Assembly: GCA_004431415.1 (NCBI GenBank)
Contig: QPMI01000475.1
Span: forward strand, 1 to 64,000
From: Cyanophora paradoxa CCMP329
Taxonomy: Eukaryota > Plantae > Glaucophyta
Length of the DNA stretch: 64,000 nucleotides
Reading direction: 5' to 3'
Shown here: positions 8,854 through 46,975 of the stretch, one piece after another
How positions within the stretch are numbered: the stretch's first letter is position 1
Layout of the letters: every line of letters begins with the position of its first letter
The notes under the pieces: generated by a model
The model's database searches: none
Told to the model about the DNA's origin: nothing
What the model saw: the letters and a program-made list of their open reading frames with translations, nothing else
Made by a program: the position numbers and the translations under genes

Positions 8854-9587
8854 ATGGGTGAATATAATCGAGTTCAACTTCCAATATATTCCCTTGGATC
8901 CCCTGCAATGCACTTTCGCCAGCATGAAGTTAATGATGAGGTTCGTGGTTTAGAATCCACAGAGAGACCCAATTCCAATGGTAACTCCTTTGATAAAAAT
9001 TCGATTATTCGAGTTAAAGAGCTGAGAGCTGATAAGAATTCAGGTGTGGTTAAAACAACTCGACTTCTTGTCACAAATGCTAACTTCTTTCAGCCTACTA
9101 ATGGAGGTCCTGATGCTTACAGTGTTGATCTGAAAGCCCTTGATTATGATAAAAACACTGCTGCTGTAACTGTGAGATCAGGAGGAGCATTTATTGGTGG
9201 TGGCTGCAGAGTTTCAGGTCAACTTTCATCCTCAATTTCGTATAATGATGTCCCAGATACTCTTGAACAAAATGTAGAGAACCCACAACGAATTCGATTA
9301 TATATACCAGTTGCACAACAGCCAGTTATTCAATTTTACCAAGGTTATACTGTCACACTTGAAAACTCTGAATTGATTGAAGGAACCAAAAGAGTAATGA
9401 GAGGGCTGGTCATTCCTTCTGCAATGCTTTCTTTATGTAGAGCCAACAATAACCAGCCAGGTCACAGATACAATTTCAGTGTTCAGGGATATGATCATTT
9501 TGGCACAGGGTTCTGTGTTTATAATAACAATTTCACCTATGATCTGTTTGTTACAGATATTGGAAAATATACAATTACAGTTATGGG
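8854..9587 (+). pseudogene. 5' part of a spike-family gene disrupted by the inner element
   Basis: MGEYNRVQLP... is homologous to 35106..35948; the frame continues at 39274. Confidence 0.9.
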
Positions 9588-9694
9588 ACACATAAATAAA
9601 AACAAATTTAAATCCCTCGCTCTATCGCTCAATTCGCGCTTCGCGCTCATTTCGCTCTGTCGCTCAGGATTTAAATTTGTTTTTATTTATGTGT
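9588..9694. other. Terminal hairpin: 28-bp perfect stem with 51-nt TCGC-rich loop
   Basis: ACACATAAATAAAAACAAATTTAAATCC at 9588-9615 and its reverse complement at 9667-9694; mirrored at 39161-39267. Confidence 0.92.
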
Positions 9695-10048
9695 AAATTA
9701 ATCGAAAATATTTAAAAAATAAATCAAAATTTTTAATAAAATCAATTAAATTTAAATAAATTCGATTAAATTAATTGGTATAATATCAATTAAATTATGA
9801 TTTTATGAAATTTATATAAATTTTTGATAAATTACGTATTTCTCGATTGATTTAATGATATAAACGCGATTAATTTGTATTTAAATGAAAAATACGTATT
9901 TTGCGATTGATATAAACGCGATTAATTTGTATTTTATGCAAAATCGATATAATCTCGATTGAGGGAACATAAATTTATGATATAATCAATCACGATTGAA
10001 GTAGTCCACCTCCCATTCTATCGTAAAACGCAAAAATTCACACAGAGT

Positions 10049-10700
10049 TGCATTACGTCCAATTAAACAATCGATGAGATTGCGGCGTATTTTGTTGGAA
10101 GAGATGGTTACTGCATTATGTCCAATTAAACAATCGATGAAATATCGGATGAAAATAATTCACTCGTTACGGCATTATGTCCAATTAAACAATCGTTGAG
10201 ATTGCGGGAAACAAAAATGACCCCAGAGTTGCATTATGTCCAATTAAACAATCGATGAAATATCGGATGAAAATAATTCACTCGTTACTGCATTATGTCC
10301 AATTAAACAATCGATGAGATTGCGGCGTATTTTGTTGGAAGGGATGGTTACTGCATTATGTCCAATTAAACAATCGATGAGATTGCGGCGTATTTTGTTG
10401 GAAGGGATGGTTACTGCATTATGTCCAATTAAACAATCGATGAAATATCGGATGAAAATAATTCACTCGTTACTGCATTATGTCCAATTAAACAATCGAT
10501 GAGATTGCGGCGTATTTTGTTGGAAGGGATGGTTACTGCATTATGTCCAATTAAACAATTGATGAGATTGCGGTGTATTTTGTTGGATTAGATGGTTACT
10601 GCATTATGTCCAATTAAACAATCGATGAGATTCGGGTAAGATTTTTACTGTATCAAAATTGACCCCAGAGTTGCATTATGTCCAATTAAACAATTGATAA
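10049..10700 (+). repeat. Array of 11 conserved 29-bp repeats with 30-43-bp variable spacers (in left TIR)
   Basis: TGCATTATGTCCAATTAAACAATCGATGA at 10049, 10112, 10171, 10230, 10289, 10352, 10415, 10474, 10537, 10600 and 10672. Confidence 0.92.
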
Positions 10701-10758
10701 GATTGGATTCTGTTGTTTACTGTAAAAACATTGTATCTTAGGTGTATCAATCTCAATT

Positions 10759-11114
10759 AATCGAGGGTAACAGAGGTAACGGATTTTTCCCAACCTCTCC
10801 CCTAAGATCGAGATTTTCAAAAAGTTGCGCAAAATCCGTTACCTCTGTTACCCTCGATTAAATCCGTTACCTCAATTAAAATCTGTTACCCTTACTGAAA
10901 ATAAGAATGAATCTGTTACCCTTACCATAATAAGTAATGAGTTCTTGAATAATTAATCTTTGTTTAATGATAAACAATTGAGGGTAACAGAGGTAACGGA
11001 TTTTTCCCAACCTTTCCCTAAGATCGAGATTTTCAAAAAGTTGCGCAAAATCCGTTACCTCTGTTACCCTTACTGAAAATAAGAATAAATCTGTTACCTT
11101 TGTTATCTGTTACC
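10759..11114. promoter_or_regulatory. GGTAAC(A/G)GA iteron hairpins (putative origin elements) in left TIR
   Basis: Two inverted-repeat cassettes (10759-10859, 10981-11071) plus extra TGTTACC copies; the same cassette occurs at 20314-20414. Confidence 0.55.
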
Positions 11115-11365
11115 ATTTATAGTAAGAAAACAATAAATTCTTTGTTTTATAAGTAAGATTAACTCGGAAATCGCGCTGCTATCTGCTTCTCCGCTTTCTC
11201 CAACCCTGAAAAGATCTCTGTTATTCTCTCATCTATCAATTTAGATATTACGGAGGTCTTACTTTCAAAAAAATGATGCTCGTGGGCAACCCAAAATGAT
11301 TTAAGGAAGAAGCGACAGTATAGAGTAAACCGGGTAAAAGATTTTCTCAGACGTAATTCAGTGTC

Positions 11366-13956: not shown

Positions 13957-15354
13957 ATGGATGTTACCTCGACCCTTCAACGTCTTTCTCTGAAAGAGGC
14001 GCTAACAACGCCCGAGGAAGCCAAAGCGTTCTTCCTCGATAACTCGCTTATGCTTGGTCTTGAATCAAAGACGAAACCCGTTCTCGTTACTGTTAGTCCC
14101 TCGACAACCTATGAAAACAATGTAGGTCAACGCGTTTCTTTCAAACTTCCCCGCTACAACTTTGTTGGTAAAATCGAACTCGCTTTCGACCTTCCCGAAC
14201 TAACGGCTTTTGAAGGTGATACCGACCTGGTGCGAAATGGTTACACCCGTCCCATCGGTGCGCTTGTAGAGCGTCTTGAATTCTCGTATGGATCGTATAC
14301 CTACCACGTCCCAAGCGATTTTCTTGCGATTTTCCCACTGGTCTACTATTCTGAGGATCAGCTGGCGAAAAAGAAGCGTTCAATGGGAATGCTTCATGGA
14401 ATTCCCGCTCACGGAACCAACCGTAAAGGTGGCGCTTTCTTCGTTGAAATTCCGGTGCCGTGGTTGAACCACTACCTACCTCTTGGCGCTCTGAGCGGTG
14501 AAGCCGTAATCACTGTTTGGTTCAAAGAAGCTAACAAGGGATATCTTGAAACTTCTTATGGCGGTCGCGCTCTTCCGGTTGTGACAACCGCTGCGGATCA
14601 AACCGCAAATGACGGTCTCGGAAGCGCTACTGGTGTAACTCTTGCTAATGTCGGTCAAAACATCACCACTGGCGGTATTACTGGGTTCGAAGTTGCTGGA
14701 ACTGTTCCACCAATGACCCATTACATCTCCATTAAGTCTCCTCGTCTCTACATGCATGCTATTAACGTTTCTGATGAACTGTTCGCTACTGTTATTGAGA
14801 AGGTTAAGACCACGGGGATGGCTATTCCTGCTCTCGATATCGGTTTCGTTGATGCTATCGGTGTTGCTGCGAAAGGTAACACTCAACCCAACCGAATCAA
14901 TCTTAGCCAAATCTCTGGTCTGGTTTATGCTCTTCTTGTCTCTGTTCGCGATGCCGATGGTGTCGATACTTCCAATGGTTCTCACAGCGTTCTAAAAACG
15001 CTTGCGAACGCGAAGGATATCACGATGACCTGTGAGATTAACGGACAACGTCTTTACTCGACGGAGCCAATCCCGCTACTTAAAGGTGCGGAACTCATCG
15101 CCGATGCCTTCAAATGCTCGAATATGGACAAGGAAGCAAACCGTTACGTCCTTACTGGTCTTCCATTCTGTGTTGATGGTGAGAAGGCGATTCGCAACAT
15201 TGCCCAATCTGGATATGTTGATCTCACCAACTCGTCTTCATCATTCCTCACTCTATATCTTCCTGCTGATCGCACAATTACTGTTAACGTTCGCGCTCTC
15301 ATGCATTCGTTCATTATTGTCGATAAGGACGGAATTCGCCGCATTAATCTCTAA
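13957..15354 (+). CDS. Double-jelly-roll major capsid protein (465 aa)
   Basis: Size, position between minor capsid and ATPase genes, NCLDV/PLV-like motifs (GQRVSFKLPR, IELAFDLPEL, YLPLGAL..EAVITVWF, SGYVDL) and strongly biased codon use. Confidence 0.8.
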   Translation: MDVTSTLQRLSLKEALTTPEEAKAFFLDNSLMLGLESKTKPVLVTVSPSTTYENNVGQRVSFKLPRYNFVGKIELAFDLPELTAFEGDTDLVRNGYTRPIGALVERLEFSYGSYTYHVPSDFLAIFPLVYYSEDQLAKKKRSMGMLHGIPAHGTNRKGGAFFVEIPVPWLNHYLPLGALSGEAVITVWFKEANKGYLETSYGGRALPVVTTAADQTANDGLGSATGVTLANVGQNITTGGITGFEVAGTVPPMTHYISIKSPRLYMHAINVSDELFATVIEKVKTTGMAIPALDIGFVDAIGVAAKGNTQPNRINLSQISGLVYALLVSVRDADGVDTSNGSHSVLKTLANAKDITMTCEINGQRLYSTEPIPLLKGAELIADAFKCSNMDKEANRYVLTGLPFCVDGEKAIRNIAQSGYVDLTNSSSSFLTLYLPADRTITVNVRALMHSFIIVDKDGIRRINL

Positions 15355-15415
15355 ACCATTATCAGTAAGATTTCGTTATTTTTATCTATCTTTATTAAGA
15401 AAGATCTACTACGCC

Positions 15416-17854: not shown

Positions 17855-20206
17855 ATGAACGCTGCCGCCAAGAAATCCCTGAAACGCCTTGTTGATTGGC
17901 TTCGTGAAGACGATGTCCGGTCTGAGAATATCGTAATCCCCGTCGATCCCGATACCAAAAAACCCCTCTTCGCCCATAAAGACGGATCGTGGACTTGGGA
18001 TAAATTCGATGAAGCCCTGAAATCCGGTAAGTATACTGCTTGGGGCATTCTCGCTCGCAACATCGTGGTTATCGACTTCGACCAAGAGGAGGATTTCGCC
18101 AAATTCGAGGAGGAATATCCCGATGATTTCGGTGGTGTCAATCCTCTTGCTAAAACCAAAAAAGGATATCATGTTTACTTCTCTCGTCCTACTGACTTCG
18201 ATGCTGTTAAGCTCTGGGATAAAGCGGGTGCTTTCAAAGGTTATCCCAAGATTGACTGCAAAACAATTGCATCCACTGGAACGGCTGGGTTGATCAACGT
18301 TTCCCCAAGCCCTGGTAAAACTTGGATCAGAGAACCATGGGCGGAAGGCTGTGAGTTGATCGAACCGAGTGCTGAACTCCAAAAGTGGATGATTGAAAAC
18401 TACCTTTTTCCGAGAGGATCTTTCAGTTTCGTTGAAAAGGGTATTGAGGAGAACTTACAGAAAGCTATCTTTGAGAAACTGGAAGAATTTGGATTCATCA
18501 CACCCACGATCATCAATGAGACGGAGCATGGCTACAATTTCACTGCTGAAAACAAAGGGAATGATTGTCCTTGTTGCAATCGAGTTCACGATTCCAACAA
18601 TTGGTATGTGATTCGAGGAAAAGAGAAGGGCATATATATCGTTTCGAGTTACAGTGCGAATTGCAAGAAGCGTTCTATCATCGTGCGAGTCAAAGAGGAG
18701 ACTTTGGCTAATATCGATCACCTAATTGATAAGTCTACGGGTTCAGATGGCGGGCATTATGATGTTGCGGATGTTGCTTACCTCATTCTGCGGGAAAGCT
18801 ACAAGTTTTCGAACAAGACTTGGTTCAAGTTCAATGAGAAAAGTGGTATTTGGGAGATGGATGATACTGGAAAGCGAATCTATCTTTGTCTGAGTGCGAA
18901 AGTTTGTCCTGCTTATCTGAAACGTGCTATTGAATACTCAACAAAAGCGCTTCGTGATGAAGAGAACCGTAATATGTTCGAAGAGAAGGCAAAGACGTTG
19001 CTTGGAATTGCAAAGATGCTGAAACAAACTTCATATCGGAGGTCGGTTATCAATGATCTCGAAGTTTACCTGAGTGATAGATTGTTCTTTGGGAAACTTG
19101 ATACTGTTCCCAACGTGATCGGGTTCACAAATGGAGTATTCGACTTGAAGACTATGTCTTTTCGCAAAGGAGTTCCGGATGATATGATCAGTAAGACTGT
19201 TGGCTATGATTACACCACAGAAATCGATCAAGAGAAAGTTGAGAAACTCAAATCGATTTACGCTGATATTATCGAATGCCCAATTGATCGTAACTACGTT
19301 CTCGGTTCCATTGCTTTCTCATTGTCTGGTAAGATCGAAAACCAAAAATATCATTTCTGGACTGGAATTGGAGCAAATGGTAAATCACTCCTTCAAGAGT
19401 TGGTGAAAGATACCTATGGTGAATACTATGGATCTCTTGATATGTCGTATTGGACGAAACCAAAGAAAAGTTCATCGGAGGCGTCACCCGAACTTGCCGA
19501 TATTCTTGGAAAAAGGATTGTTTTCAGTAATGAAGCGGAAGATGGCGATAAACTTCAACTCAACAAGATTAAACAGATCAGTGGAGGCAATGAGTTGAAG
19601 GTTCGCGCTCTTTTCAAGGATCCCGTAGTCTTTGTTCCAATGTTTCAGCTGTTCTTGTCAACAAATGACAACCTTGGATTGAGCAAACCCGATAACGCAA
19701 TTGAGAGGCGGACATCTTACTACCGGTTCAAGTGTGTATTCAAACCAAACCCTGGTGAAGGCGAGAAGTTAGCCGATACATCACTTATGTATCTTCTGCG
19801 TGACGATGATGATTACAAGATGGCTAACATGTCAATCTTCTTGGAGATGTGGAAATCCCAAGATCTTCTGAAATTGATGAAGAACCCGCCACAGACCATC
19901 ATTGATGAAGGAGCGAGTTACTTTGCTGAAAATGATAAGATCGGCGAGTGGCTGCGCAACAACTACGAGAAAACAGGAAGCCGGACTGATTTCGTCCCAA
20001 GTGACACGATCATCAAGGGGTTCCGTTCTGTTGATGAGAAAGCGGATCCCATCAGCATTGGTAAGCCAGTTCGGGAGATCTACAATATCAAATCTGAGAC
20101 CAAGAAAGAAAGAGGTCAGGTATCCCGTGGATATTTCGGATTGAAGAAGAAACAGATCGGAGAATTCGTTGATGATGATGGAATCGACAGCGATATCGAG
20201 GCTTGA
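17855..20206 (+). CDS. AEP (Prim-Pol) primase, Zn-ribbon and D5-like SF3 helicase
   Basis: VVIDFD and TKKGYHVYF (AEP motifs), CPCC..H..C, IGFTNGVFDL (D5_N), Walker A GIGANGKS, and motif C LSTND. Confidence 0.92.
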   Translation: MNAAAKKSLKRLVDWLREDDVRSENIVIPVDPDTKKPLFAHKDGSWTWDKFDEALKSGKYTAWGILARNIVVIDFDQEEDFAKFEEEYPDDFGGVNPLAKTKKGYHVYFSRPTDFDAVKLWDKAGAFKGYPKIDCKTIASTGTAGLINVSPSPGKTWIREPWAEGCELIEPSAELQKWMIENYLFPRGSFSFVEKGIEENLQKAIFEKLEEFGFITPTIINETEHGYNFTAENKGNDCPCCNRVHDSNNWYVIRGKEKGIYIVSSYSANCKKRSIIVRVKEETLANIDHLIDKSTGSDGGHYDVADVAYLILRESYKFSNKTWFKFNEKSGIWEMDDTGKRIYLCLSAKVCPAYLKRAIEYSTKALRDEENRNMFEEKAKTLLGIAKMLKQTSYRRSVINDLEVYLSDRLFFGKLDTVPNVIGFTNGVFDLKTMSFRKGVPDDMISKTVGYDYTTEIDQEKVEKLKSIYADIIECPIDRNYVLGSIAFSLSGKIENQKYHFWTGIGANGKSLLQELVKDTYGEYYGSLDMSYWTKPKKSSSEASPELADILGKRIVFSNEAEDGDKLQLNKIKQISGGNELKVRALFKDPVVFVPMFQLFLSTNDNLGLSKPDNAIERRTSYYRFKCVFKPNPGEGEKLADTSLMYLLRDDDDYKMANMSIFLEMWKSQDLLKLMKNPPQTIIDEGASYFAENDKIGEWLRNNYEKTGSRTDFVPSDTIIKGFRSVDEKADPISIGKPVREIYNIKSETKKERGQVSRGYFGLKKKQIGEFVDDDGIDSDIEA

Positions 20207-20256
20207 AGAAGAAAATCAAAATAATATATTTAACTGATAATTCATTTTTTATAACT

Positions 20257-20414
20257 TTACTGAATATGGTAAGGGTAACAGAGGTAACGGATTTAATCGA
20301 GGGTAACGGATTTAATCGAGGGTAACAGAGGTAACGGATTTTGCGCAACTTTTTGAAAATCTCGATCTTAGGGGAGAGGTTGGGAAAAATCCGTTACCTC
20401 TGTTACCCTCGATT
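20257..20414. promoter_or_regulatory. Internal iteron/hairpin cassette (putative origin) downstream of the primase-helicase
   Basis: 29-bp stem at 20314-20342/20386-20414 built from GGTAAC(A/G)GA units; the iteron block is preceded by TTACTGAATATGGT. Confidence 0.55.
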
Positions 20415-20699: not shown

Positions 20700-23600
20700 A
20701 TGCCCCGCCAAACGAACAGACTGATCAAAGAAAAGAAAAATGAAATACTTGGATTGTTAGGAACTCTCTTAGTTACCGGTGAGATAACCGAAGCGGAATA
20801 CGATAGAGAAGCCGCCATCTTAGATAGACGACCGCGATTAGGTCAACTCACTGAGATTGCAAATGACCTCTACAATCGCATGCAGAGAATGGAGGAGTTT
20901 ATGGATGAAGGACAGAGATTAGGAGCAATTGACCCGGACATTGAAGATGGTCAAGCAATGAATCAAGCGTATTCGTGGTTGACCTATCGCGCCCGAAACG
21001 AAGTTGTCGTGGATGCTATCGAATTCCTCGAAAGAATCGCACCAAGTCTACCGCAACGCATTAGAACCCGCTTAGATCAACTGAGAGCCGTTAAAGTCCG
21101 TCTGACTTTCGTTTGCAAGTTCACCAAAGTAGGTAATCCGCGCATCTATATCACCAAATTCATTTACAGCGATTATTTCGTAATTACCCGATCCCGCAAC
21201 ATAGACACAGAAGTTCGCAAAGCGTTACAGAAAATGCAAGAGGAAATGACGCAAGTGGATAGTTACCGTTTAGAGAAGATCGAAATTTTAAGAGGTGTAA
21301 TCATGTCATACGCACCTGTGGGTGGTTGTTTTTTCGCAACTCCCGAATGGATCGCATCCAAGAAGGCAACGGTGAACGTTAAGAATATCGACGGTCAAGA
21401 TTGCTTCAAGTATGCGATTTTGGCTTACCTACATCGAAAGGACATTAACAAACACAAGAGCAACGAACCAAGCCAATACCGCAGATGGTTAAATGAACTC
21501 AATTTCGAAGGTATTCAGTTTCCCGTTGCCTGTGATGCTGAGGTAATCGATCGATTCGAAGAACTGAACCCCGAACTTTCTATTAACATTTACGGAGCCG
21601 ATAACGCCAAAGAGTGTTTCTATCCTCTCCATCAATCAAGTAACCCAAGGAGAAAGACCAAGATTAATCTTTTACTTATCGAAAACACCGAAGATGATCG
21701 GGGACACTACATTACTATCATGTCTTTTAGTCGTCTTCTGAAAACTACATTTGATAAAGCATGTGATGGTCGCATTTACTACTGTGAAACCTGCTTGTCT
21801 CGTTTCAGAACTCAGGAGAAATTAGACCTGCATGTTGAAGCGAATCGCTGCATTGATTGGAGGGAGAGCAAAGGCAAATGCCCAAAAGCGGGAAGCGTAA
21901 TTGAATTCGGTCTGCAACATCTGCGTAAAACTGTTTGGCTACCCGTGATCTGTTATGTTAAAGTCGAAGATCATTCGGTTGCTATTGATGCACAGAGGAG
22001 TAAACGTGAGATCAAAGCGGTTTCATTGAGAGTGGTAATGGGAGATGAAGTGAGAGCATACCATTTCGAGGGAGCCGATCCGCTTGGTTCTCTCTTTGCT
22101 ACTCTACAAGATATTAGACCCGAAATCGTTGAGACGCTGTTTAGAAACATTCCGATGCATCCACTCACAGACGATCAGAAGGCGGAATACAAGGTAACAA
22201 AACACTGTTACATTTGCTCTCAGAGATTCACCCACGAAAACTTCCCGGTTCGCGATCATTGCCACCAATCCGGCGATTTCATCGGAAAGGCATGCCGAAA
22301 CTGTAACCTCCACCGGCGAATCTCAAAGCAAACCAAAGTAGCTATCGTGGTCGATCACATGGATGAATGCGGACACGGAATATTCCGCAAAATTGCCCAA
22401 CAAGATGATAAACTACGTGTTGAGATTCTGAGCAAGAATTTCGATCAATACCTATCGCTTCAATGGGGCATGTGGAAGTTCATAGATGCTTCCCATTTTA
22501 TGGATTTCCAATCTGTGGATGTAGGCGATTTAATGAGAAAGTTTGAAGCATTTCGCAAATTGGCGTTTTCTCAATACGGATTGGATCCCGCACATTATGT
22601 TAGCGCACCGGGTCTCTCTTGGGATGCTATGCTAAAACATACGAAAGTTAAGATTGAACTAATCGATGATGTAGAGAAATACGAATTTGTTGAGAGAGCC
22701 ATTCGCGGTGGATTTGCTACCATGCCCACACGATACGCAAAGGTAGAAAACCCCAACGATCATATAGTTCTGTTGGATGCAAATAATCTTTATGGTTATG
22801 CTCTCAGTCAACCACTACCAATCGGAGATTATCGATGGGAAGACATCACAGAGGCACTTAAAGAGGTAGAGGGACGAAGCGCATTTATTGAAGTAGATCT
22901 TGAATACCCCACAACTTTTGAAGATCATTACGATTTCCCACTGATTGTGAATAAAGAAGTGATTACCGCTGAAATGCTTGGTGATTATCAACGTAAACTA
23001 TTAGATCTGACGGGCGAAAAGATCAGCAAAGACCCCAAACTTACAGCGACATTTACGCCCAAGAATAAATACGTGATTGCTCGACCTCTTCTTAACTACA
23101 TCGTTAAAAAGGGTGTCATTCTAAAAAAGATACATAAAGTTCTCTCATTCGCTACCTCCCCATTCATGAGATCTTACATTGGTCTGAATACTCTACTCCG
23201 CCATGAATCTACTAACCATTTTGAAAGCGACTTCTTTAAACTCATGAACAATGCAATTTACGGTAAATGTTTGGAATCTTGCAGGGGTCGCTCAACTGTC
23301 AAGATTGCTAACAGTGAGAAACTCTGTAAGAAATACGCAGCAAGTCCGCTTATCAAGGCGACCAATGTATTAAACGAAAACGCAGTTGCCTTCGAGATGT
23401 ATTCGAAGCATGTTAATTTAGATAAACCCGTAGCAATTGGCGCTTTCGTTTTGGATTTCGCGAAACTCCATAATTATCGATTCTTCTATGATGTGGTAAG
23501 GAAGAAGTGGGAAACCGCCAAACTACTGTTCCACGATACCGATTCGTTCTGTTTGTTCTTGAAAACAAATAATCTCAATGAAGATATGAAAGAGATAGGT

Positions 23601-23981
23601 GAGTATCTCGATAGGAGCAATTACGATAAATCCCATCCTCTTGTGAGTATCAAAAACCGCATGGTTCCTGGTAAATATAAGAATGAGTTTCCAAATGCAA
23701 AGATCATGGAGTATGTGGGTCTGAGATCGAAACTCTATGCTTTCAGAACTGAGACCAACGAAAGAGTAAAGATGTCGGGGACTTCCTCGAAAGAGGTTCA
23801 CTTTGACGATTTTAAGAGATGTCTGTTTGAAGGCATCATAAAAACAGTATCAGTAACAAACAAGCGAAGGCAAGACCACAACTTATATGACTTGGAGAGC
23901 AGAAGGGTCGCTCTAAACCAACTCGATAGCAAACGGAAGATATCAGCCGACGGCATTCACAGCATTCCATTTGGTCTTTAA
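20700..23981 (+). CDS. Polinton-type (protein-primed family) DNA polymerase B with Zn-finger and Endo VII-like domain
   Basis: CFKYAIL, C2H2 (CETC...LHVEANRC), RDHCHQSG..GKACRNCN, motif A DANNLYGYAL, motif B KLMNNAIYGK, motif C DTDS, and LRSKLY. Confidence 0.93.
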   Translation: MPRQTNRLIKEKKNEILGLLGTLLVTGEITEAEYDREAAILDRRPRLGQLTEIANDLYNRMQRMEEFMDEGQRLGAIDPDIEDGQAMNQAYSWLTYRARNEVVVDAIEFLERIAPSLPQRIRTRLDQLRAVKVRLTFVCKFTKVGNPRIYITKFIYSDYFVITRSRNIDTEVRKALQKMQEEMTQVDSYRLEKIEILRGVIMSYAPVGGCFFATPEWIASKKATVNVKNIDGQDCFKYAILAYLHRKDINKHKSNEPSQYRRWLNELNFEGIQFPVACDAEVIDRFEELNPELSINIYGADNAKECFYPLHQSSNPRRKTKINLLLIENTEDDRGHYITIMSFSRLLKTTFDKACDGRIYYCETCLSRFRTQEKLDLHVEANRCIDWRESKGKCPKAGSVIEFGLQHLRKTVWLPVICYVKVEDHSVAIDAQRSKREIKAVSLRVVMGDEVRAYHFEGADPLGSLFATLQDIRPEIVETLFRNIPMHPLTDDQKAEYKVTKHCYICSQRFTHENFPVRDHCHQSGDFIGKACRNCNLHRRISKQTKVAIVVDHMDECGHGIFRKIAQQDDKLRVEILSKNFDQYLSLQWGMWKFIDASHFMDFQSVDVGDLMRKFEAFRKLAFSQYGLDPAHYVSAPGLSWDAMLKHTKVKIELIDDVEKYEFVERAIRGGFATMPTRYAKVENPNDHIVLLDANNLYGYALSQPLPIGDYRWEDITEALKEVEGRSAFIEVDLEYPTTFEDHYDFPLIVNKEVITAEMLGDYQRKLLDLTGEKISKDPKLTATFTPKNKYVIARPLLNYIVKKGVILKKIHKVLSFATSPFMRSYIGLNTLLRHESTNHFESDFFKLMNNAIYGKCLESCRGRSTVKIANSEKLCKKYAASPLIKATNVLNENAVAFEMYSKHVNLDKPVAIGAFVLDFAKLHNYRFFYDVVRKKWETAKLLFHDTDSFCLFLKTNNLNEDMKEIGEYLDRSNYDKSHPLVSIKNRMVPGKYKNEFPNAKIMEYVGLRSKLYAFRTETNERVKMSGTSSKEVHFDDFKRCLFEGIIKTVSVTNKRRQDHNLYDLESRRVALNQLDSKRKISADGIHSIPFGL

Positions 23982-24166: not shown

Positions 24167-25567
24167 ATGCCCTCAGCACAGATAGGATTACGACCCGTTC
24201 CTAAAATCGTAAAGAAGAGCATGAAAGAAGACCAAGGGAACATGCTACCGATCACTATTCCGGTCGAAGAGAAGAACACGCGAATCTTGAAGAAGTCTGA
24301 GATGGTTAAAGAACTGATCCCGGAGGCATTACCTACTGAGACTGCAACGAAAGAATCGAAGATCGCGAAGAAGTTTTACGATCCGCGCACGGGTTACAAG
24401 GGTTTCGGGGCAATGAGAAAGGAACTACCAGAGGAAGACTACAAGAAGATGAGAGAATGGTATGATAAACAGGAAGTCGTTCAGATAAACGCACCGACCC
24501 TTTCAAGAAAGAGAGATCCGATGATTCCGATTCGGCAACCTCTCGATACCTACGTAATCGATCTGCTCTTCTTCCCAGCATACAAGAACCAAAACGACGG
24601 ATACGATACGTTCATGTCCGCGATGGAATCTACCTTACGCACGGGTTACATCATTCCGATGAGAGATAAGAGCGCTCTTACGGCGCTTGCGGCGTTTGAA
24701 CAGCTACAACGAAGAGTTCCTCGACCTATCGCACGCGTTCAGAGTGACAGCGGAAGCGAGTTCACAAATAACATGTTCACGAATTACCTTGCTAAGAAGT
24801 TCATAGACCATCAGATAAGCGATGTCGCAGATCATCGAAGCCAAGGTAGAATCGAAGCGTTTAACAAGCAGATCAAACGATTGATCACGAACTATTGCAT
24901 AGCAAACAACACAGCGCGATTCTTCGATGTATTGGGAGACATTGAGTATAACTATAATAATACCATCCACTCAGCAACCAAGAGAAAACCAGCAGAAACG
25001 ACGGAAGATCATTACCGTGAGATTATCGGATTAGAAGATGAGAGGTTCAAGAAGTCGATTGCTTACTTGGATGGTATCAAACAGGGTATGTTTGTGAGAG
25101 TGAGAATAGAAAAGAACCCATTCGCTAAACAAGGTGTCAATTGGTCGCGAATCGTCTATACTGTCGAAGGGAGAGAGGGTTTCAAGTTCAGGTTGCGAAA
25201 TCCGAACGGCGAAATGGTCGAAGGGAGATTCGCTTTCCACGAACTGTTACCTATCAAAGGTGTTGAGTATCACGAAGCGCCCACAGTGGATGCACTTGAA
25301 CAAGCGAAAGAAGAAGCCCGGGTCGATTCGGCAATTCGCAAGGAAGGCATCGAAAAAGCGGATGACGTCCCAGAAGAACCGTTAACACAAGCCAGAACCA
25401 AGAAGAAAGGTAAGGCGGAACGTGAATTAAAGAAGTTAACCATAGCAGGAACCCAGAAACTATCAGAAGTCAACAGTCAGAGATGGTATACAGACTTTCA
25501 GACCTCAAAAGAGACATATTCAGCCCCACAAACCCGGGTAAATCTAAGATCCAGTTCGCGAAAGTAG
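24167..25567 (+). CDS. Retroviral-type (RVE) DDE integrase
   Basis: YVIDL, QSDSGSEF, QGRIEAFNKQIK and YNNTIHSATKRKP; Polinton-like C-terminal FAKQGVNWS..VYTV. Confidence 0.93.
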   Translation: MPSAQIGLRPVPKIVKKSMKEDQGNMLPITIPVEEKNTRILKKSEMVKELIPEALPTETATKESKIAKKFYDPRTGYKGFGAMRKELPEEDYKKMREWYDKQEVVQINAPTLSRKRDPMIPIRQPLDTYVIDLLFFPAYKNQNDGYDTFMSAMESTLRTGYIIPMRDKSALTALAAFEQLQRRVPRPIARVQSDSGSEFTNNMFTNYLAKKFIDHQISDVADHRSQGRIEAFNKQIKRLITNYCIANNTARFFDVLGDIEYNYNNTIHSATKRKPAETTEDHYREIIGLEDERFKKSIAYLDGIKQGMFVRVRIEKNPFAKQGVNWSRIVYTVEGREGFKFRLRNPNGEMVEGRFAFHELLPIKGVEYHEAPTVDALEQAKEEARVDSAIRKEGIEKADDVPEEPLTQARTKKKGKAERELKKLTIAGTQKLSEVNSQRWYTDFQTSKETYSAPQTRVNLRSSSRK

Positions 25568-25679
25568 CATAGATGTGTAGAGGATGCAAAGAGGATTCCG
25601 GCGATGGTCGCGGTTTCGAAAATGGATGAGTTGGTGAAGAGTTACAGCAGTGTGTATGAATTTCTTGGAATTTTGGGTT

Positions 25680-25915
25680 CAGTTATCATATCATACCTCT
25701 CCCCCGGTTATCATATCATATCATACTTTCCCCCCCAGTTATCATACTTCTCCCCCCCAGTTATCATACTTCTCCCCCCCAGTTATCATACTTCCCCCCA
25801 GTTATCATAATTAATCCCCCAGTTATCATAATTCATCCCCCAGTTATCATATCATACTTCTCCCCCCCAGTTATCATACTTCATCCCCCAGTTATCATAT
25901 CACACTTCTTCCCCC
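25680..25915 (+). repeat. ~21-bp minisatellite (C)nAGTTATCATACTT, ~10 copies
   Basis: GTTATCATA recurs with variable C-runs between the convergent integrase and patatin genes. Confidence 0.9.
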
Positions 25916-26096
25916 AATGACGTCACGACATATATACCGCATATATACACGTGACGTCACGACATATATACACTATATATACCAAAACCTCCGTAATGCC
26001 GGTTGACCAAGAAAAAAATGTTTGGAAAAAATGTATATATACGTATACATATACATATATATAATCAAAAAAATCGGAAAAAATTCCCTCTCTTTT

Positions 26097-37293: not shown

Positions 37294-37695
37294 ATGAACT
37301 ATCATCGGGGATTTCACGTGATGTTGGATTACAAGTTCAATCATCCATTGATGGTGGGATTGGACAACATAGACACCACAACGAAGTGGTTAATGCAATT
37401 TTTTCAATCTATTATTCAAGAGCAAGGTATCCGAGTTGTTCACAAGCATTGCGAGATTTTCGATGGTGGTGTTTCGCCACCCGGTTTTGCGATGGTATTA
37501 CTCCTCGATGAGAGCCATTTAACCGCTCATTGTTATTCAGACCAGGGAATGTTGGCGATTGATATATTCACTTGCGGATTGGAAGCGCAAAGTAAGACCT
37601 CCGTAATATCTAAATTGATAGATGAGAGAATAACAGAGATCTTTTCAGGGTTGGAGAAAGCGGAGAAGCAGATAGCAGCGCGATTTCCGAGTTAA
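37294..37695 (+). CDS. speD: S-adenosylmethionine decarboxylase proenzyme (short prokaryotic/viral type)
   Basis: G.H...D, F..GVSPPG.A.VLLLDESHLTAHCY (pyruvoyl E|SH cleavage site) and AIDIFTCG. Confidence 0.88.
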   Translation: MNYHRGFHVMLDYKFNHPLMVGLDNIDTTTKWLMQFFQSIIQEQGIRVVHKHCEIFDGGVSPPGFAMVLLLDESHLTAHCYSDQGMLAIDIFTCGLEAQSKTSVISKLIDERITEIFSGLEKAEKQIAARFPS

Positions 37696-39267
37696 TCTTA
37701 CTTATAAAACAAAGAATTTATTGTTTTCTTACTATAAATGGTAACAGATAACAAAGGTAACAGATTTATTCTTATTTTCAGTAAGGGTAACAGAGGTAAC
37801 GGATTTTGCGCAACTTTTTGAAAATCTCGATCTTAGGGGAAAGGTTGGGAAAAATCCGTTACCTCTGTTACCCTCAATTGTTTATCATTAAACAAAGATT
37901 AATTATTCAAGAACTCATTACTTATTATGGTAAGGGTAACAGATTCATTCTTATTTTCAGTAAGGGTAACAGATTTTAATTGAGGTAACGGATTTAATCG
38001 AGGGTAACAGAGGTAACGGATTTTGCGCAACTTTTTGAAAATCTCGATCTTAGGGGAGAGGTTGGGAAAAATCCGTTACCTCTGTTACCCTCGATTAATT
38101 GAGATTGATACACCTAAGATACAATGTTTTTACAGTAAAAAACAGAATCCAATCTTATCAATTGTTTAATTGGACATAATGCAACTCTGGGGTCAATTTT
38201 GATACAGTAAAAATCTTACCCGAATCTCATCGATTGTTTAATTGGACATAATGCAGTAACCATCTAATCCAACAAAATACACCGCAATCTCATCAATTGT
38301 TTAATTGGACATAATGCAGTAACCATCCCTTCCAACAAAATACGCCGCAATCTCATCGATTGTTTAATTGGACATAATGCAGTAACGAGTGAATTATTTT
38401 CATCCGATATTTCATCGATTGTTTAATTGGACATAATGCAGTAACCATCCCTTCCAACAAAATACGCCGCAATCTCATCGATTGTTTAATTGGACATAAT
38501 GCAGTAACCATCCCTTCCAACAAAATACGCCGCAATCTCATCGATTGTTTAATTGGACATAATGCAGTAACGAGTGAATTATTTTCATCCGATATTTCAT
38601 CGATTGTTTAATTGGACATAATGCAACTCTGGGGTCATTTTTGTTTCCCGCAATCTCAACGATTGTTTAATTGGACATAATGCCGTAACGAGTGAATTAT
38701 TTTCATCCGATATTTCATCGATTGTTTAATTGGACATAATGCAGTAACCATCTCTTCCAACAAAATACGCCGCAATCTCATCGATTGTTTAATTGGACGT
38801 AATGCAACTCTGTGTGAATTTTTGCGTTTTACGATAGAATGGGAGGTGGACTACTTCAATCGTGATTGATTATATCATAAATTTATGTTCCCTCAATCGA
38901 GATTATATCGATTTTGCATAAAATACAAATTAATCGCGTTTATATCAATCGCAAAATACGTATTTTTCATTTAAATACAAATTAATCGCGTTTATATCAT
39001 TAAATCAATCGAGAAATACGTAATTTATCAAAAATTTATATAAATTTCATAAAATCATAATTTAATTGATATTATACCAATTAATTTAATCGAATTTATT
39101 TAAATTTAATTGATTTTATTAAAAATTTTGATTTATTTTTTAAATATTTTCGATTAATTTACACATAAATAAAAACAAATTTAAATCCTGAGCGACAGAG
39201 CGAAATGAGCGCGAAGCGCGAATTGAGCGATAGAGCGAGGGATTTAAATTTGTTTTTATTTATGTGT
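37589..39267 (-). repeat. Right terminal inverted repeat of the inner element
   Basis: Mirror of 9588-11265, including the array (38155-38806) and terminal hairpin (39161-39267). Confidence 0.95.
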
Positions 39268-39273
39268 TATGGG

Positions 39274-40557: not shown

Positions 40558-40956
40558 ATGGAGACTAAATACAGAGGCTTTCATGTTATGCTTGATTACA
40601 AGGCTAAATCAGCTATTGCAACAGGACATGAGCATGTAAGCTTCCTAGGTAATTGGATTATGGGAACCCTTGAACAAGCAGTATTAAGACAAGGCATTAG
40701 GATTGTTCATAAACACTGTGAGATATTTGATGGCAAAATATCACCTCCTGGTTTTGCATTGGTTCTGCTATTAGATGAAAGCCATTGCACAGCTCATTGT
40801 TATTCCAATGAAGGCATGTTAGCAATTGATATATTCAGTTGTGGTAAAGAAGCTCAGCATAAAACACAAGCAGTTGCAGATGAGATCGATAAAACAATGA
40901 ATTTCTTAACATTTGAGAAGACTGAGAGACATAAACATGATAGATTCCCGTTTTGA
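40558..40956 (+). CDS. speD: S-adenosylmethionine decarboxylase, outer element
   Basis: LLLDESHCTAHCY...AIDIFSCG; homolog of 37294..37695. Confidence 0.88.
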   Translation: METKYRGFHVMLDYKAKSAIATGHEHVSFLGNWIMGTLEQAVLRQGIRIVHKHCEIFDGKISPPGFALVLLLDESHCTAHCYSNEGMLAIDIFSCGKEAQHKTQAVADEIDKTMNFLTFEKTERHKHDRFPF

Positions 40957-41369: not shown

Positions 41370-41845
41370 TAAATGCATTTTTTGAATCAACTACACCAAC
41401 TAACACTGAGATTTTACCAATATATGAGGTCCTTACTGAATATGGTTTGTGTGACAGGTGTGACAGGTCTATCCCAAACTTTTCTATAGCATAAAAATGA
41501 ACTCTCAAAAGTTTGGGATGGACCTGTCACACCTGTCACACTCGATTATTTCATTTGTTTATTCAAGTAGAATTACATAGATAAACTTCTTACTTATTGT
41601 TACTGAGTTTTTCATTATAAAAGAGATCCTTACTGAATATGGTTTGTGTGACAGGTGTGACAGGATGCATTTTGTGAATCAACTACACCAACTAACACTG
41701 AAATTTTAACATTAAAAGAGATCCTTACTGAATATGGTTTGTGTGACAGGTGTGACAGGTCTATCCCAAACTTTTCTATAACATAAAAATGAACTATCAA
41801 AAGTTTGGGATAGACCTGTCACACCTGTCACACCCAATTATTTCA
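41370..41845. repeat. Duplicated ~170-bp unit with GTGTGACAG iteron hairpins (outer element subterminal region)
   Basis: 35-bp stems at 41449-41541 and 41741-41833, each preceded by TTACTGAATATGGT. Confidence 0.85.
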
Positions 41846-42084: not shown

Positions 42085-42367
42085 ACACATAGTAAAATGC
42101 GGAGTTTTAACCAGAGGCAAGATCTAATTGAGATTCAGTTATATTATTCGGAAATATATACAGATTATCGATAGACTCAGTAAGACTAATCGGAAAATAA
42201 GAGAAATTTACGATAAAATATCGAAAAGAATACAAAATAATCGAAATAAATGAATATTCGATAAGATATACACAGATTATCGATTGATTGAAATAGAATA
42301 TACGAGATATATCAACAAAATCAATTAAGATAAGCCGAGGGTTAAAACTCCGCATTTTACTATGTGT
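42085..42367. other. Right terminal hairpin of the outer element (28-bp stem)
   Basis: ACACATAGTAAAATGCGGAGTTTTAACC at 42085-42112 and its reverse complement at 42340-42367. Confidence 0.9.
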
Positions 42368-43300
42368 CGTGTATACAGCCAACAGGCCGTCTCCCGCGGG
42401 ATTGGCATTTCCTGAAAAGCAAATGACTCGTGAACCCGCCCGCAGACGACTGGAAAACAGCTGGTTTGTCTTGAATGCGAAGCTCGCGTTCGCAAGAAGA
42501 TACTCCGTTATTCCACAATCGGAAATCACATATATCCAGCCATCGCCCTTTGAGTCTGTACAAAACCCAGATCCGAGAAATTCGCCTGACGTCGACGTTC
42601 CAGATGGACATTGCGGACCGAAAGAATTTCGATAACCATTGCCTGGACGCCATAAGGTCACGCCGTAGTCTTCAGGAATAATCATCGCCGAGGCATCTGG
42701 AACCCAGAAGAGGCTGCCCACGTTTTTCGAACTCCCTGCGCCTCTGGCAATGGAATATAGAAGGCGCTTGCCGGAATCCCAGATATTTAAACGACTGGCG
42801 ACAATATTGATGTTAGGATCGTTCTCAACGCATAGAGCGGCCAGTAGTCCATTTGAAGAAATTGCAATGTTTTCAACCTGCACACCGATTGATCGTATGC
42901 ATGCGCCCGTTCAAATTGCAAAAACGCACCTTGCTTATTTGGTAAACGGAACCCTCAGAGATTGTAGCGACAAGCTCAAGGTGAAGCTGAAGCTTGTCCT
43001 TGACATTTGTGAAGCGCCAGGTAACGTTGTAGAAGAATATTCCTGCATCCTGAACACTCCACGGCAGTCCTCCCACGGCGAGATATGAGCTGTCTGGGCT
43101 GAATGACAAGGCCAACACAGGGAATGGGCGCCATTGTATGGCTGCGATCTGAGAGCCATCGCTTGAGTTCCACAGACGAACCCAAGAATCTTGACTCCCT
43201 GAAGCTATCAAGTTCCCATCGGGAGAGATTGCAATTGCGTTGACTCGCTGAGTGTGTCCAAGAAGTATCGCCAGCTGTGTCCAGCGAGCTGTTGTGTATC
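42368..43300 (-). pseudogene. WD40-repeat gene fragment truncated by the outer element
   Basis: IASGSQDSWVRLWN...VLALSFSPDSSYLAVG; the reading frame runs into the element terminus at 42367. Confidence 0.6.
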
Positions 43301-44445
43301 GATATCGATATCATAAATATATATAAGATTACTTGCATGATATGAGCGGTCTTATAGATTATGCATGCGCATATATAAGCTCAAGCAGGATCCTGACCTG
43401 CGGCCGTCGGACTCCCTTGAAGAGGTGCCGGCGTCGGTGACGGTGGATCAGGATATCGATCCGTACGCGTGTTTTCAGATTGCAATTGCGTGCGCCCTGG
43501 GCCGATGCCGAAGCTTAAGCCCGGTCTTGCACGGGCAGCGCTAGCGGTAGCTTCCATATAAATAGTCTTCGAATTCGAGGCCGGCGTTGCCGCATGCGCA
43601 AGTGCGCTCAACGTTAACGCAACCGAAATTTGAATGCATATGGCTAGCGCTGCAACTGTATACGTACGTATACATATACATGCATGCGCATATTCATCTT
43701 TGCATGCGCGCGTACGATCTGGATCTCGAGCTCTAGATCTAGCTACGAATACGGGAGCATACACAGATCTAGATCTCGCGATCGCGATCGACGCTAACTT
43801 AAGCTTTCGATTGCGAAGCCGTCGACGTCGGCCGCGGGCTGTATACGTAGCTAACTTTAACGCAGACATCAATCGGCTCGCGATCGGAAGAACGTTGAAT
43901 TGGGAACTGCAGCTGCGGATCGCTAGACTCTGAGATTATATATATAAAGCTAAGCGCGCGCGCGGCATGACTCTCATGCCATGATCATATGCATGATGAT
44001 CATCCCGCATGCGCAGTGCGCATAATATGATCATGATAGCTGATCATGACTCATGATCAGTGACTCTAGATGTGAGCTGCGCTGCATCTGTCTAGATCTG
44101 GAGTCTCTAGACTCGAGACTCTATCGATATCTGCAGCGACTATCATATCTGCAAATGTGCAGCTACTATAGTACATGATGTGTACATCATAGTATATATA
44201 TCGCCGAGCACGTGATTGATCAGCTCAGATCATCGGATTCACTGACTCAAGTGATCGTGAGTCATGCCTGATCGATATCAGCTGCAGCTGCAGGCTGCAG
44301 CCTTGCATGGCGCCGGCCGCCCGGCCGCGCGGCCCCGGCGCGGCGGCCTATAGCTAGTTCCACTACCGTACGCGTAGTACCGGGCCACTACTACCGGCCG
44401 CGCGCCGGGCCGCGGACTGTACAAGTACAGTAGTAGTACTGAGCA

Positions 44446-44705
44446 CTGTAAAACGAGAAATGCATATGTCCGGCGTCACTTTATTTCGGCAAAACCCGAA
44501 TTGCGCCGAAATTGTGGTTCATCCGCATCATATTTTCGGCGGCACAGCCAGTCCGCCTGGGCGACGGGTACATTGACCCCTCTCCTGCCATACATCTGCA
44601 CAATTCTGGCAGAAGCAAATATTCGGCGCCGCGGCCGGGGCTACGCCGAAAATTAAAAGCGCCGAATATTAAGTTCTGCCGGACATTTCTCGTTAAATTT
44701 AACAG
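44446..44705. mobile_element. Degenerate MITE-like element
   Basis: Imperfect TIRs CTGT..AACGAGAAATG..TCCGGC / GCCGGACATTTCTCGTT..ACAG; internal TTCGGC/GCCGAA repeats. Confidence 0.5.
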
Positions 44706-45169
44706 TACATGTGCTGAGAATTCGAATCGGCCGATCATCGGATCGCGATTCGCGATTCACGTCGATTTCACGATCAGATTCGCGTTAAATGATCGGCCCG
44801 GCGGCGAAGATCGCATTCGCCGATGATTCGCGATACTATATATGAAGTTTGATTCAAATTCATAGCGATCGCGACGGAGATTTGATGAGTCCATTTTGAG
44901 ATCGCGAATCGCGATTCGCGCAATCGCGAAGTTTATTTAATTTGCATGCAATATTAATTGCAATTGCAACTTGCAAGACTCCGAGACTCGGAGTCGGCGA
45001 TCGAATTCGAAGCGCCGCGGCGCAGCTGCCACTGCCTGCCAGTGCGCGCGTATATACGTACGATTCATGGCCATGGATGCGCCGCATCATGCATATGGCA
45101 TGCCGCATGAGGCCCGCATCGATACCGTAACAGTATTATCGTTATAATTAATTATATCCGATGATCGTA

Positions 45170-45427
45170 CCGTAAAACACAATATTAATGCGCTCAATAT
45201 TAATGCGTTTTTGGACCCGGACCCCTCGTATGGCTAATAATGCGCCCCCAAATTAATGCGTTTTTACGCTTTCTCGCCTGCATAAGGGGGGTACTGAGTC
45301 CTACTGTCTGCAGTTTCTTAGCGTTCTGTTATTAATGCGCCCCCAAATTAATGCGTTTTGACGGCAAAAAACGCATTAATTTGGGGGCGCATTAATATTA
45401 TGCGCGCATTAATATTCTGCTTTACGG
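45170..45427. mobile_element. Tc2/pogo-type MITE (258 bp)
   Basis: TA|CCGTAAA.CA.AATATTAATGCGC ... GCGCATTAATATT.TG.TTTACGG|TA: TA duplication, CCGTA termini and internal ATTAATGCG repeats. Confidence 0.75.
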
Positions 45428-46975
45428 TAGGTTACGGAACTTACGGACCAAGTTACTGTACGCGCCGTGTACGGTACGCATGCGCACTACGGAGTCTCGA
45501 GTCTACGGTACATACGCGCACGATCGCGACGATCATCGTCGATTCATCGCATCGGCCGATCGACTTGTTGAGATTCTTGAGAATCGAATCGGCTAGCGCT
45601 GAGAGTCATATCCGGATTCCGGAGTCCGGCGGCTCCGGCCCGGCGGACCGGACTCGGGATGCGCGGAGTTGAGAATTCGAATCGGCCGATCGACGATCGC
45701 GAACTTGAATTCGAATCAGATTCGATTCGCGATCGGCGAAAATCGCGATACCGTGGAAGACTTAATTATAATTAGCGTTGGTAATTTGGACTTAATTATA
45801 ATTAGCGCAAATTACCGCGCGGCGCCCGCGTTCTAAAACTTAAAATTGCAAATTAATATTACCGCGGTAATTTGGTACTACTAAATTGGTAGCGCATGCG
45901 CAGCGGTTGTACGTACGTATACGTCTTTTGCGGTAATTTCGTACCGCGCCAAATCAAGGCGCAGAATTTAAGTTTTACATGCACCAGTACACCGTACTAG
46001 ATATCCGATTCATTGCGATCGCGAGATTCGCGACGCGACGTCGTCGTCACGTCGACCGCGATCATTGGATCGAATCCGATCGATCCGGCCGCCGGCCCCG
46101 GCGCCGGCGGGCCGCGCGCAGAATCGCCGCAGATGCAAATTAACACTACAGCTACGTAAACGATTGGAGATAATTGTGAAATAAATACGATCCCGCAAAT
46201 CAATGAAATCATGCCGCAGTGCGGGGGGCCGCGCCGCCGCGCCGCCGCGGCCTGCGGTCCTGGGCCCCTGGCTGCGGATCACGCGGATCATGATCATGAC
46301 TCAGTGATCATGGTCGACGTGCCGCAAAACTTGCGGCAAAAGGGCAGTCAAAAGGAGTACAAAAGCTGGCAGAGCTCGAGGTGGGTACAAAAGGAGAACG
46401 TACAAAAGCTGGATCACAGAGTCAAGGGCAGGCAACGTTAACAGGACAGTCAAAGGGATCACAAAAGCTGGCTAAGGTGGGCTGTCGAACTGCAAACGAC
46501 GGCGAACTATAGGTCGAGCGCGAGGACTGATTATCATAGTACATATACAGCCGGCAAAGCAGATCTAGAGGACAAAAAGAGAAGTCGGAATTCGAAGATA
46601 GTCACGGTCGGAAGAAGAAGCCTCTAGAGGACCAATTGCAAGGTCACGGGCCGGAAGTCGATCCGGGTGATTCCGGGATCCGGTCTCCTGGGGAGCGGGG
46701 AAGGGAGGTCACATATCATGCCCCGGCGCACGCTGTCATGGCTCTCGAGCTCTCCGAGTAGCACAGGTCATCCTCAGGGCCTGCATGAGAAGCCTCCATC
46801 CGGTCTCTCGGAGTGGCTTAACGTGATCTGCCGAGAGCGCCTGCTCGCCCCGTAATGATCACCGCGGGCGGCGGATCTAGCCACGCAGGCGGCGCCCACC
46901 TCGGGGAGCCGCCACGGAACCGGAAGCAGGAGATTGCACGGCAGAGCAGAAAGGACCGCTGGGCCCCGCCGCCCC

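Follow-up and report, generated by a model that had tools for sequence, protein, structure and literature searches.

Here we report that two elements in a 64,000-nucleotide stretch of Cyanophora paradoxa DNA (the window), which we treat as Polinton-like viruses (PLVs) nested one inside the other, carry inverted cassettes of short repeats that are likely to be replication origins in the style of SaPI and pRN1. By analogy with those systems, the cassettes would be bound by the C-terminal winged helix of the viral primase-helicase, whose hexamers would load and melt the DNA before its Prim-Pol domain primes. The start of replication in PLVs with primase-helicases is described as mostly unknown in the part of a recent preprint drawn on here (bioRxiv 10.64898/2026.07.28.741278), and the inner and outer cassettes are a testable candidate for how such viruses begin it. 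The locus supplies a 160-bp site, a 9-bp unit, an 80-residue candidate reading domain and a natural two-letter allele as a specificity control. If true, this reading connects the origins of PLVs with phage satellites and with DNA recognition of the RFX type. The locus adds a pair of cassette alleles in sibling viruses nested one in the other, their common leader, further copies in the terminal inverted repeats (TIRs) and the match to an RFX half-site.

The window has 32-48% GC over its first 42 kb and about 70% GC from 47 kb on. The inner element (9588-39267; about 29.7 kb, 40% GC) is flanked by the target duplication TATGGG at 9582-9587 and 39268-39273, and its insertion interrupts a gene of the outer element. 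It displays the features of a PLV, namely TIRs, the 6-bp target duplication, an rve integrase (24167-25567, plus strand; Pfam E 2e-4, PHROG transposase), an A32 ATPase and a viral replicase; besides the integrase and the ATPase, Pfam recognises a Prim-Pol/D5 primase-helicase, a patatin and an AdoMetDC-like protein among its gene products. Genes of the outer element are 45-73% identical to their inner paralogues (7 pairs). The outer element is seen only in its right part, its left part and left end lying beyond the 64-kb window, and we infer its probable right end from a palindrome at 42085-42367 that finishes in ATGTGT like the inner element. The inner TIRs (9588-11265 and 37589-39267, ~1.68 kb each) terminate in palindromes with 28-bp arms at 9588-9694 and, as a mirror, 39161-39267. 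Both elements are terminated by ACACAT...ATGTGT palindromes with 28 perfect base pairs each, those of the outer one at its outer ends; the inner palindrome spans 107 nt with a GCTC/CGCT-rich loop, the outer one 283 nt. By analogy with the fold-back priming ends proposed for Halocafeteria elements (bioRxiv 10.64898/2026.07.28.741278), these termini are possible fold-back priming ends. Nested PLVs, terminal palindromes and the occurrence of pPolB plus D5 in one element have all been described (bioRxiv 10.64898/2026.07.28.741278, 10.64898/2026.10.13.758929).

Alongside the primase-helicase, the inner element has a family B polymerase-like gene (20700-23981, plus strand) with the motifs DANNLY, KLMNNAIYGK and HDTDS and an endonuclease VII insert, which may on the strength of these motifs encode a second, PolB-like replicase. 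It has no match in Pfam or the PDB; its catalytic motifs are present, and clear exonuclease motifs were not found by eye. The capsid candidate, a 465-aa ORF at 13957-15354, was assigned from size and position only, has no match in Pfam, PHROG or the PDB, and has as its sole relative found a EukProt record labelled Cyanophora paradoxa (58% identity). AdoMetDC-like genes (37294-37695 in the inner element, 40558-40956 in the outer) are the last genes before the terminal cassettes in each element. The final 107 nt of the inner one fall inside the TIR (11159-11265, 37589-37695), so that the left TIR holds an orphan gene end.

The initial annotation described inverted arrays of GGTAAC(A/G)GA after the primase-helicase gene and twice in each inner TIR, and our counts bear this out. 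None of 100 shuffles reaches the 36 copies of GGTAACRGA found in the window, where 0.58 are expected, and 33 of the 36 lie in these five cassettes. The cassette behind the helicase begins 51 nt past the stop codon (20206), after a 50-nt AT-rich tract (20207-20256, plus strand, 14% GC) whose AT content is reached in 0.08% of 50-nt windows in the non-TIR part of the inner element. It opens with the leader TTACTGAATATGGT (20257-20270, plus strand) and continues with the iteron array (20273-20414, plus strand), in which forward repeats stand at 20274 (68 nt past the stop), 20283, 20302, 20321 and 20330, and inverted repeats at 20390 and 20399. The last forward pair and the inverted pair make up the perfect 29-bp arms (20314-20342/20386-20414) of a hairpin with a 43-nt loop. 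Two further cassettes lie on the plus strand of the right TIR, at 37729-37879 (leader TTACTATAAATGGT, 34 nt past the AdoMetDC-like gene) and 37918-38096 (leader TTACTTATTATGGT), and are mirrored on the minus strand of the left TIR at 10976-11125 and 10759-10937, respectively.

The same architecture, built on GTGTGACAG, was also confirmed for the outer element: this unit occurs 11 times in the window (0.26 expected), 10 of them at 41449-41833. They form two full cassettes (41433-41541 and 41725-41833) and one half cassette (41630-41664), all on the plus strand and each opening with the leader and two copies of GTGTGACAG. The full cassettes have 35-bp arms, 97% matched in the first and perfect in the second (41741-41775/41799-41833), around 23-nt loops, while the half cassette has no inverted arm. 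Folding z-scores of the cassette hairpins are -12 to -13.

The leader 14-mer, a candidate priming or accessory site, is identical in the outer element and had been called invariant. It is exact at 20257, 41433, 41630 and 41725, but in only these four of the eight cassettes, the four inner TIR cassettes having TTACTTATTATGGT or TTACTATAAATGGT in its place. The consensus TTACT-N5-TGGT starts all eight. Its single other copy in the 64 kb (15355-15368, minus strand; 12 of 14 positions matching the leader) lies directly after the stop of the capsid candidate with no repeats behind it and may be a chance occurrence. Some 14-mer was shared between the inner and outer regions in 27 of 2000 Markov shuffles, and the shared leader occupies the same register before the first repeat in both elements. 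Two other roles for the leader were rejected: it does not fold as a small hairpin (z -0.5 and +1.2), and it is no general promoter, since none of 22 start codons has it in the preceding 40 nt.

Two bases past the leader, the inner element reads GGGTAACAG and the outer element GTGTGACAG, in the same register and with 7 of 9 positions identical, and every repeat within one element has that element's type. With two differences in nine positions and a common register, the two look like alleles; probably, to judge from these alignments, they descend from a single ancestral cassette and underwent a joint re-coding of the repeats in every copy. In contig ends from the same organism's runs, an outer-type cassette leads on into an AT spacer resembling the inner TTTAATCGA one and into more GTGTGAC repeats. 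There, an outer-type cassette is also entered from at least 255 nt of other sequence, the last 30 letters of which resemble the inner post-helicase flank. The outer helicase gene lies beyond the 64-kb window, and a helicase link of the outer cassettes was not observed; nor, among the matches listed, was a 1025-nt helicase-variant contig found on an outer cassette.

The inner primase-helicase (17855-20206, plus strand; 783 aa) comprises Prim-Pol, D5_N and SF3 ATPase (DUF5906) domains and ends in a predicted winged helix at about residues 693-768 (nucleotides 19931-20158, plus strand), assigned from an AlphaFold model, structure matches and RFX hits. In the model, built from 125 sequences (pLDDT 89), this end folds at about residues 695-765 as helix-strand-helix-helix-strand-strand with pLDDT about 95; a single-sequence fold of the domain alone failed (pLDDT 52), and Pfam gave no match for it. 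Structure matches of the model are ASFV C962R, poxvirus D5, SaPI5 PriRep (7om0; VIA Z 28.6, rmsd 5.2, 399 residues aligned) and the pRN1 Prim-Pol domain (1rni; Z 13.6). Full-length profiles match the DNA-binding domains of RFX1 or RFX5 at the C-terminus only, weakly (E 0.93 and 0.22), and by itself the window's domain gives an end-to-end alignment with RFX1 that is likewise weak (E 0.36). A profile of 20 such domains, the window's included, finds RFX5 and RFX1 with E 0.0014 and 0.0053; all RFX matches of the domain are full-length alignments and range in E from 0.0014 to 1.5. The apparent kinship with the RFX winged helix is weak but consistent, and the same kinship has been reported for pRN1 ORF904 and P4 alpha (PMC2777425). 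The RFX consensus is GTNRCC(0-3N)RGYAAC (PMC5752003), and the inner repeat GGTAAC equals its half-site RGYAAC, whereas the outer GTGAC type departs from it and the window's sites are tandem, not X-box spaced.

SaPI origins consist of 6-12 short repeats that follow immediately on the gene, two or more per side and in opposite directions, with an AT-rich centre (PMC9371898, PMC7581432). The likeness extends from the protein, a fused primase-SF3 helicase with a C-terminal winged helix as in SaPI Rep and SaPI5 PriRep (PDB 7om0, 7ola), to the site, where seven repeats (five forward, two inverted) stand directly 3' of the gene with at least two per side. The inner centre, however, is not AT-rich (loop 47% GC; spacer 39%, against 40% for the whole inner element) and has its AT tract upstream instead; the outer loops are AT-rich, with about 21% GC. 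The window's sites belong to an integrating eukaryotic virus, their repeats make a long perfect palindrome, and the inner element adds four TIR cassettes and a PolB-like gene. Like the inner protein, pRN1 ORF904 and its phage BIP-1 relative join a Prim-Pol, a D5_N/SF3 helicase and an RFX/P4-like winged helix (PMC4234260, PMC2777425), and they have a stem-loop of roughly 100 nt 3' of the gene, with a stem that varies between relatives and a conserved stop-to-stem flank (PMC4234260). The pRN1 stem is described without iterons in the sections of PMC4234260 used here, whereas the window's stems consist of tandem 9-bp repeats, and pRN1 is a circular plasmid with one such site. According to the same sections and those of PMC2777425, specific binding of the pRN1 stem-loop could not be demonstrated and the conserved flank was deletable. 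We file the inner and outer cassettes as members of neither the SaPI type nor the pRN1/BIP-1 type.

The alpha primase-helicase of phage P4 binds oriented TGTTCACC iterons at its ori. It resembles the inner protein in combining a primase, an SF3 helicase and an origin-binding winged helix within a single polypeptide and differs in its Toprim-type primase; a palindromic stem is not described for it in the portions of PMC4234260 and PMC2777425 cited here. Inverted repeats of PLVs have previously been hypothesised to be primase-helicase origins, and a repeat common to the TIR and the helicase flank has been described (PMC11296320). In the portions of this and two other PLV papers considered (PMC11296320, bioRxiv 10.64898/2026.10.13.758929, 10.64898/2026.07.28.741278), no repeat unit, reading domain or allelic cassette pair is defined. 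In a search of the polinton literature that was not exhaustive, no polinton paper among those listed mentioned iterons, and the supplements of the three papers may show such repeats.

As an outside test of the layout, IMG/VR was searched with patterns reduced to three features, namely the hexamer, its 9-bp period and the inversion. With the degenerate inner pattern there were 22 loci, of which 17 lie at the 3' end of a primase/helicase gene, meaning that the adjacent ORF points at the cassette (14 by Pfam, with VapE, DUF927/Cch, Pox_D5 or AAA_25, and 3 by PHROG; this domain count leaves out locus L016); with visibly related loci merged, about 11 of 15 groups do so. The outer pattern found 51 loci, 21 of them at the 3' end of such a gene (19 by Pfam, 2 by PHROG) and two more upstream of D5-type genes; 13 of the 51 have no nearby-ending ORF of 120 aa, and the remaining 38 were domain-scanned. 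One of these GTGACA cassettes (L105:6001-6090) lies 350 nt upstream of a C962R/D5-type gene in a 421-kb viral contig. We roughly estimate that in a 40-kb phage chance alone would put a site this close to the end of one particular gene in a few percent of cases, and a shuffled hexamer of the same composition, the single control, gave no locus in IMG/VR. With the orientation reversed there were 17 loci, 13 of them at primase/helicase genes (8 of these being one phage group), which indicates that polarity is not fixed. About 28 of the 51 GTGACA loci are not beside a recognised helicase, and the two checked (L104, L137) adjoin terminase small-subunit genes. A phage group with the GTGACA inverted cassette away from helicase genes comprises L104, L107, L115, L123, L125, L129, L133-L135, L137, L140-L142 and L151.

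None of the 22 and 51 phage cassettes has the leader within 200 nt. A leader-plus-repeat pattern found 23 IMG/VR loci, none with an inverted array, and these were taken as chance matches; together the two results make the leader so far a feature of this virus family. A helicase search of viral contigs returned no related PLV locus, and alignment of the capsid candidate none among 318 candidates. The helicase alignments reached distant D5 loci, mostly of giant-virus type (79 viral and at least 80 metagenomic). None of the 146 D5-relative loci with at least 300 nt downstream (of at least 159, among the matches listed) has an inverted GT(A/G)AC array by a detector that may miss AT-rich or widely spaced repeats. 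The layout thus appears to mark a class of helicase-linked sites, not D5 genes generally. Sigma-70 and intrinsic-terminator scans gave nothing above chance.

Based on these comparisons, we propose that the RFX-like winged helix of the 783-aa protein would bind the GT(A/G)AC-core repeats on both palindrome arms. A pair of SF3 hexamers, loaded in opposite orientations, would next melt the DNA, either in the loop or in the upstream AT-rich tract. Priming would fall to the Prim-Pol domain and might take place at the TTACT-N5-TGGT leader; through the TIR copies, the excised linear genome would have origins close to each of its ends. That the leader serves as the priming site of the better-conserved primase domain is a guess, and a tentative one that we rate below even chances. 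Against the origin reading, the PolB-like gene or the terminal palindromes could start replication without the cassettes.

The repeats might instead be operators or assembly sites for another protein, such as an integrase, a small viral DNA-binding protein or a factor of the host or a helper virus, or they might be autoregulatory sites at which the helicase does not fire. Four of the five inner cassettes do lie in TIRs, where integration and packaging proteins act, a 78-aa ORF ending in RGRPRKY sits just upstream of the helicase gene, and some phage cassettes adjoin terminase small-subunit genes. Yet it is the helicase gene, not that of the integrase, that the sole internal copy follows; more than 1 kb separates the cassettes from the inner termini; and in the phage loci the pattern goes with primase/helicase genes belonging to several families. 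A host RFX factor is also an improbable binder, because RFX factors are reported to be absent from most ciliated eukaryotes other than animals (10.1101/2022.11.11.515474). We regard such alternative binding sites as unlikely.

Two further explanations concern the palindromes and their history. The inner cassettes that follow genes in the sense direction, 51 nt past the helicase stop and 34 nt past that of the AdoMetDC-like gene, would suit hairpins for transcript 3' ends or termination, comparable to the hairpin polyadenylation signal of Mimivirus reported at the ends of 16 Sputnik genes (PMC6723459). A perfect stem of at least 24 bp, however, lies downstream of only 2 of 22 genes tested, the other 20 having 12 bp or less; the outer cassettes begin 477 nt past the last gene, the loops measure 23-43 nt, and hairpins of this kind have no need of direct repeats, a conserved leader or concerted re-coding, so that we consider them quite unlikely here. 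Very unlikely, in our estimation, is a cassette without present function, a relic or boundary repeat left by the invasion of a PolB element by a mobile helicase module, with its copies produced by recombination. This reading draws on the repeats that Gezel-14T has in common between its TIR and the region downstream of its helicase module, with the accompanying helicase-invasion model (PMC11296320), on mosaic helicase variants in the same organism, and on the description of elements with pPolB plus D5 as transient states (bioRxiv 10.64898/2026.07.28.741278). But the arms stay perfect while loops and leaders drift, and the layout is kept in both sibling elements despite different repeats. The invasion model itself needs the helicase to recognise the TIR, and is in this respect compatible with helicase-loaded origins.

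The origin reading had been put forward in the initial annotation together with a plasmid-like specificity of each element's repeats, and the two parts fared differently. Helicase-loaded origins gain indirect support from the position after the gene, the RFX-like winged helix and the phage gene-end association; a strong element-specificity is disfavoured by the interleaving of the types on phage trees. On the VapE tree (16 rows) GTAAC and GTGAC types interleave with 4 changes, and no bootstrap tree has one; the D5 tree (12 rows) has 3 type changes, no well-supported branch and no difference from shuffles. These trees leave out 8 near-copies, as do the C-terminal alignments of the phage proteins, in which no residue separating the two types was evident by eye. 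Both types recur across unrelated phage helicases, and can be understood as two states of a common core and not as private signatures. Such interleaving still allows discrimination by one winged helix.

Indirect hints nonetheless speak for co-divergence of repeat and helicase. The window's protein and its closest relative, P0021, are 48% identical in the primase domain, 42% in the ATPase and 18% in the C-terminal domain. Diverged helicase-variant contigs of the same organism match at ~82% over 19357-19693 (the ATPase core) and then break off at 19693 in 4 of 4 runs, while a single near-identical contig spans the C-terminal domain and leader in all 4, its depth not being a measure of copy number. 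Re-coding of the repeats would follow a change in the winged helix and could keep the origins of two viruses partly separate, which we consider possible at slightly under even chances. More speculative, and on balance doubtful, is a wider model in which PLVs sharing a nucleus would each keep their replication separate, as plasmids of different incompatibility groups do. Under that model, a module of winged-helix tail and adjacent origin would be swapped, toggling the RFX-type half-site between GTAAC and GTGAC, and copied into the terminal repeats; the shared TTACT-N5-TGGT leader would be read by the conserved primase domain; and helicase-loaded origins, in phages and eukaryotic viruses alike, would share GT(A/G)AC as a recognition code. 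Specificity, if confirmed, would explain the coexistence and recombination of many related viruses in one genome.

Other repeats occur along the window. A tandem array at 9990-10733 in the inner TIR, mirrored in the right TIR, consists of ~59-63-nt units with the core TGCATTATGTCCAATTAAACAATCGATGA; the outer end lacks a counterpart. The interval separating the convergent genes for integrase and patatin (25600-25950) has tandem CCCCCAGTTATCATA repeats, then TGACGTCA and TATA-rich motifs. A stretch of ~3 kb with roughly 50% GC (43300-46400), rich in short palindromes (GATC, CGCG, ATGCAT), lies between the outer element and the 70% GC host sequence.
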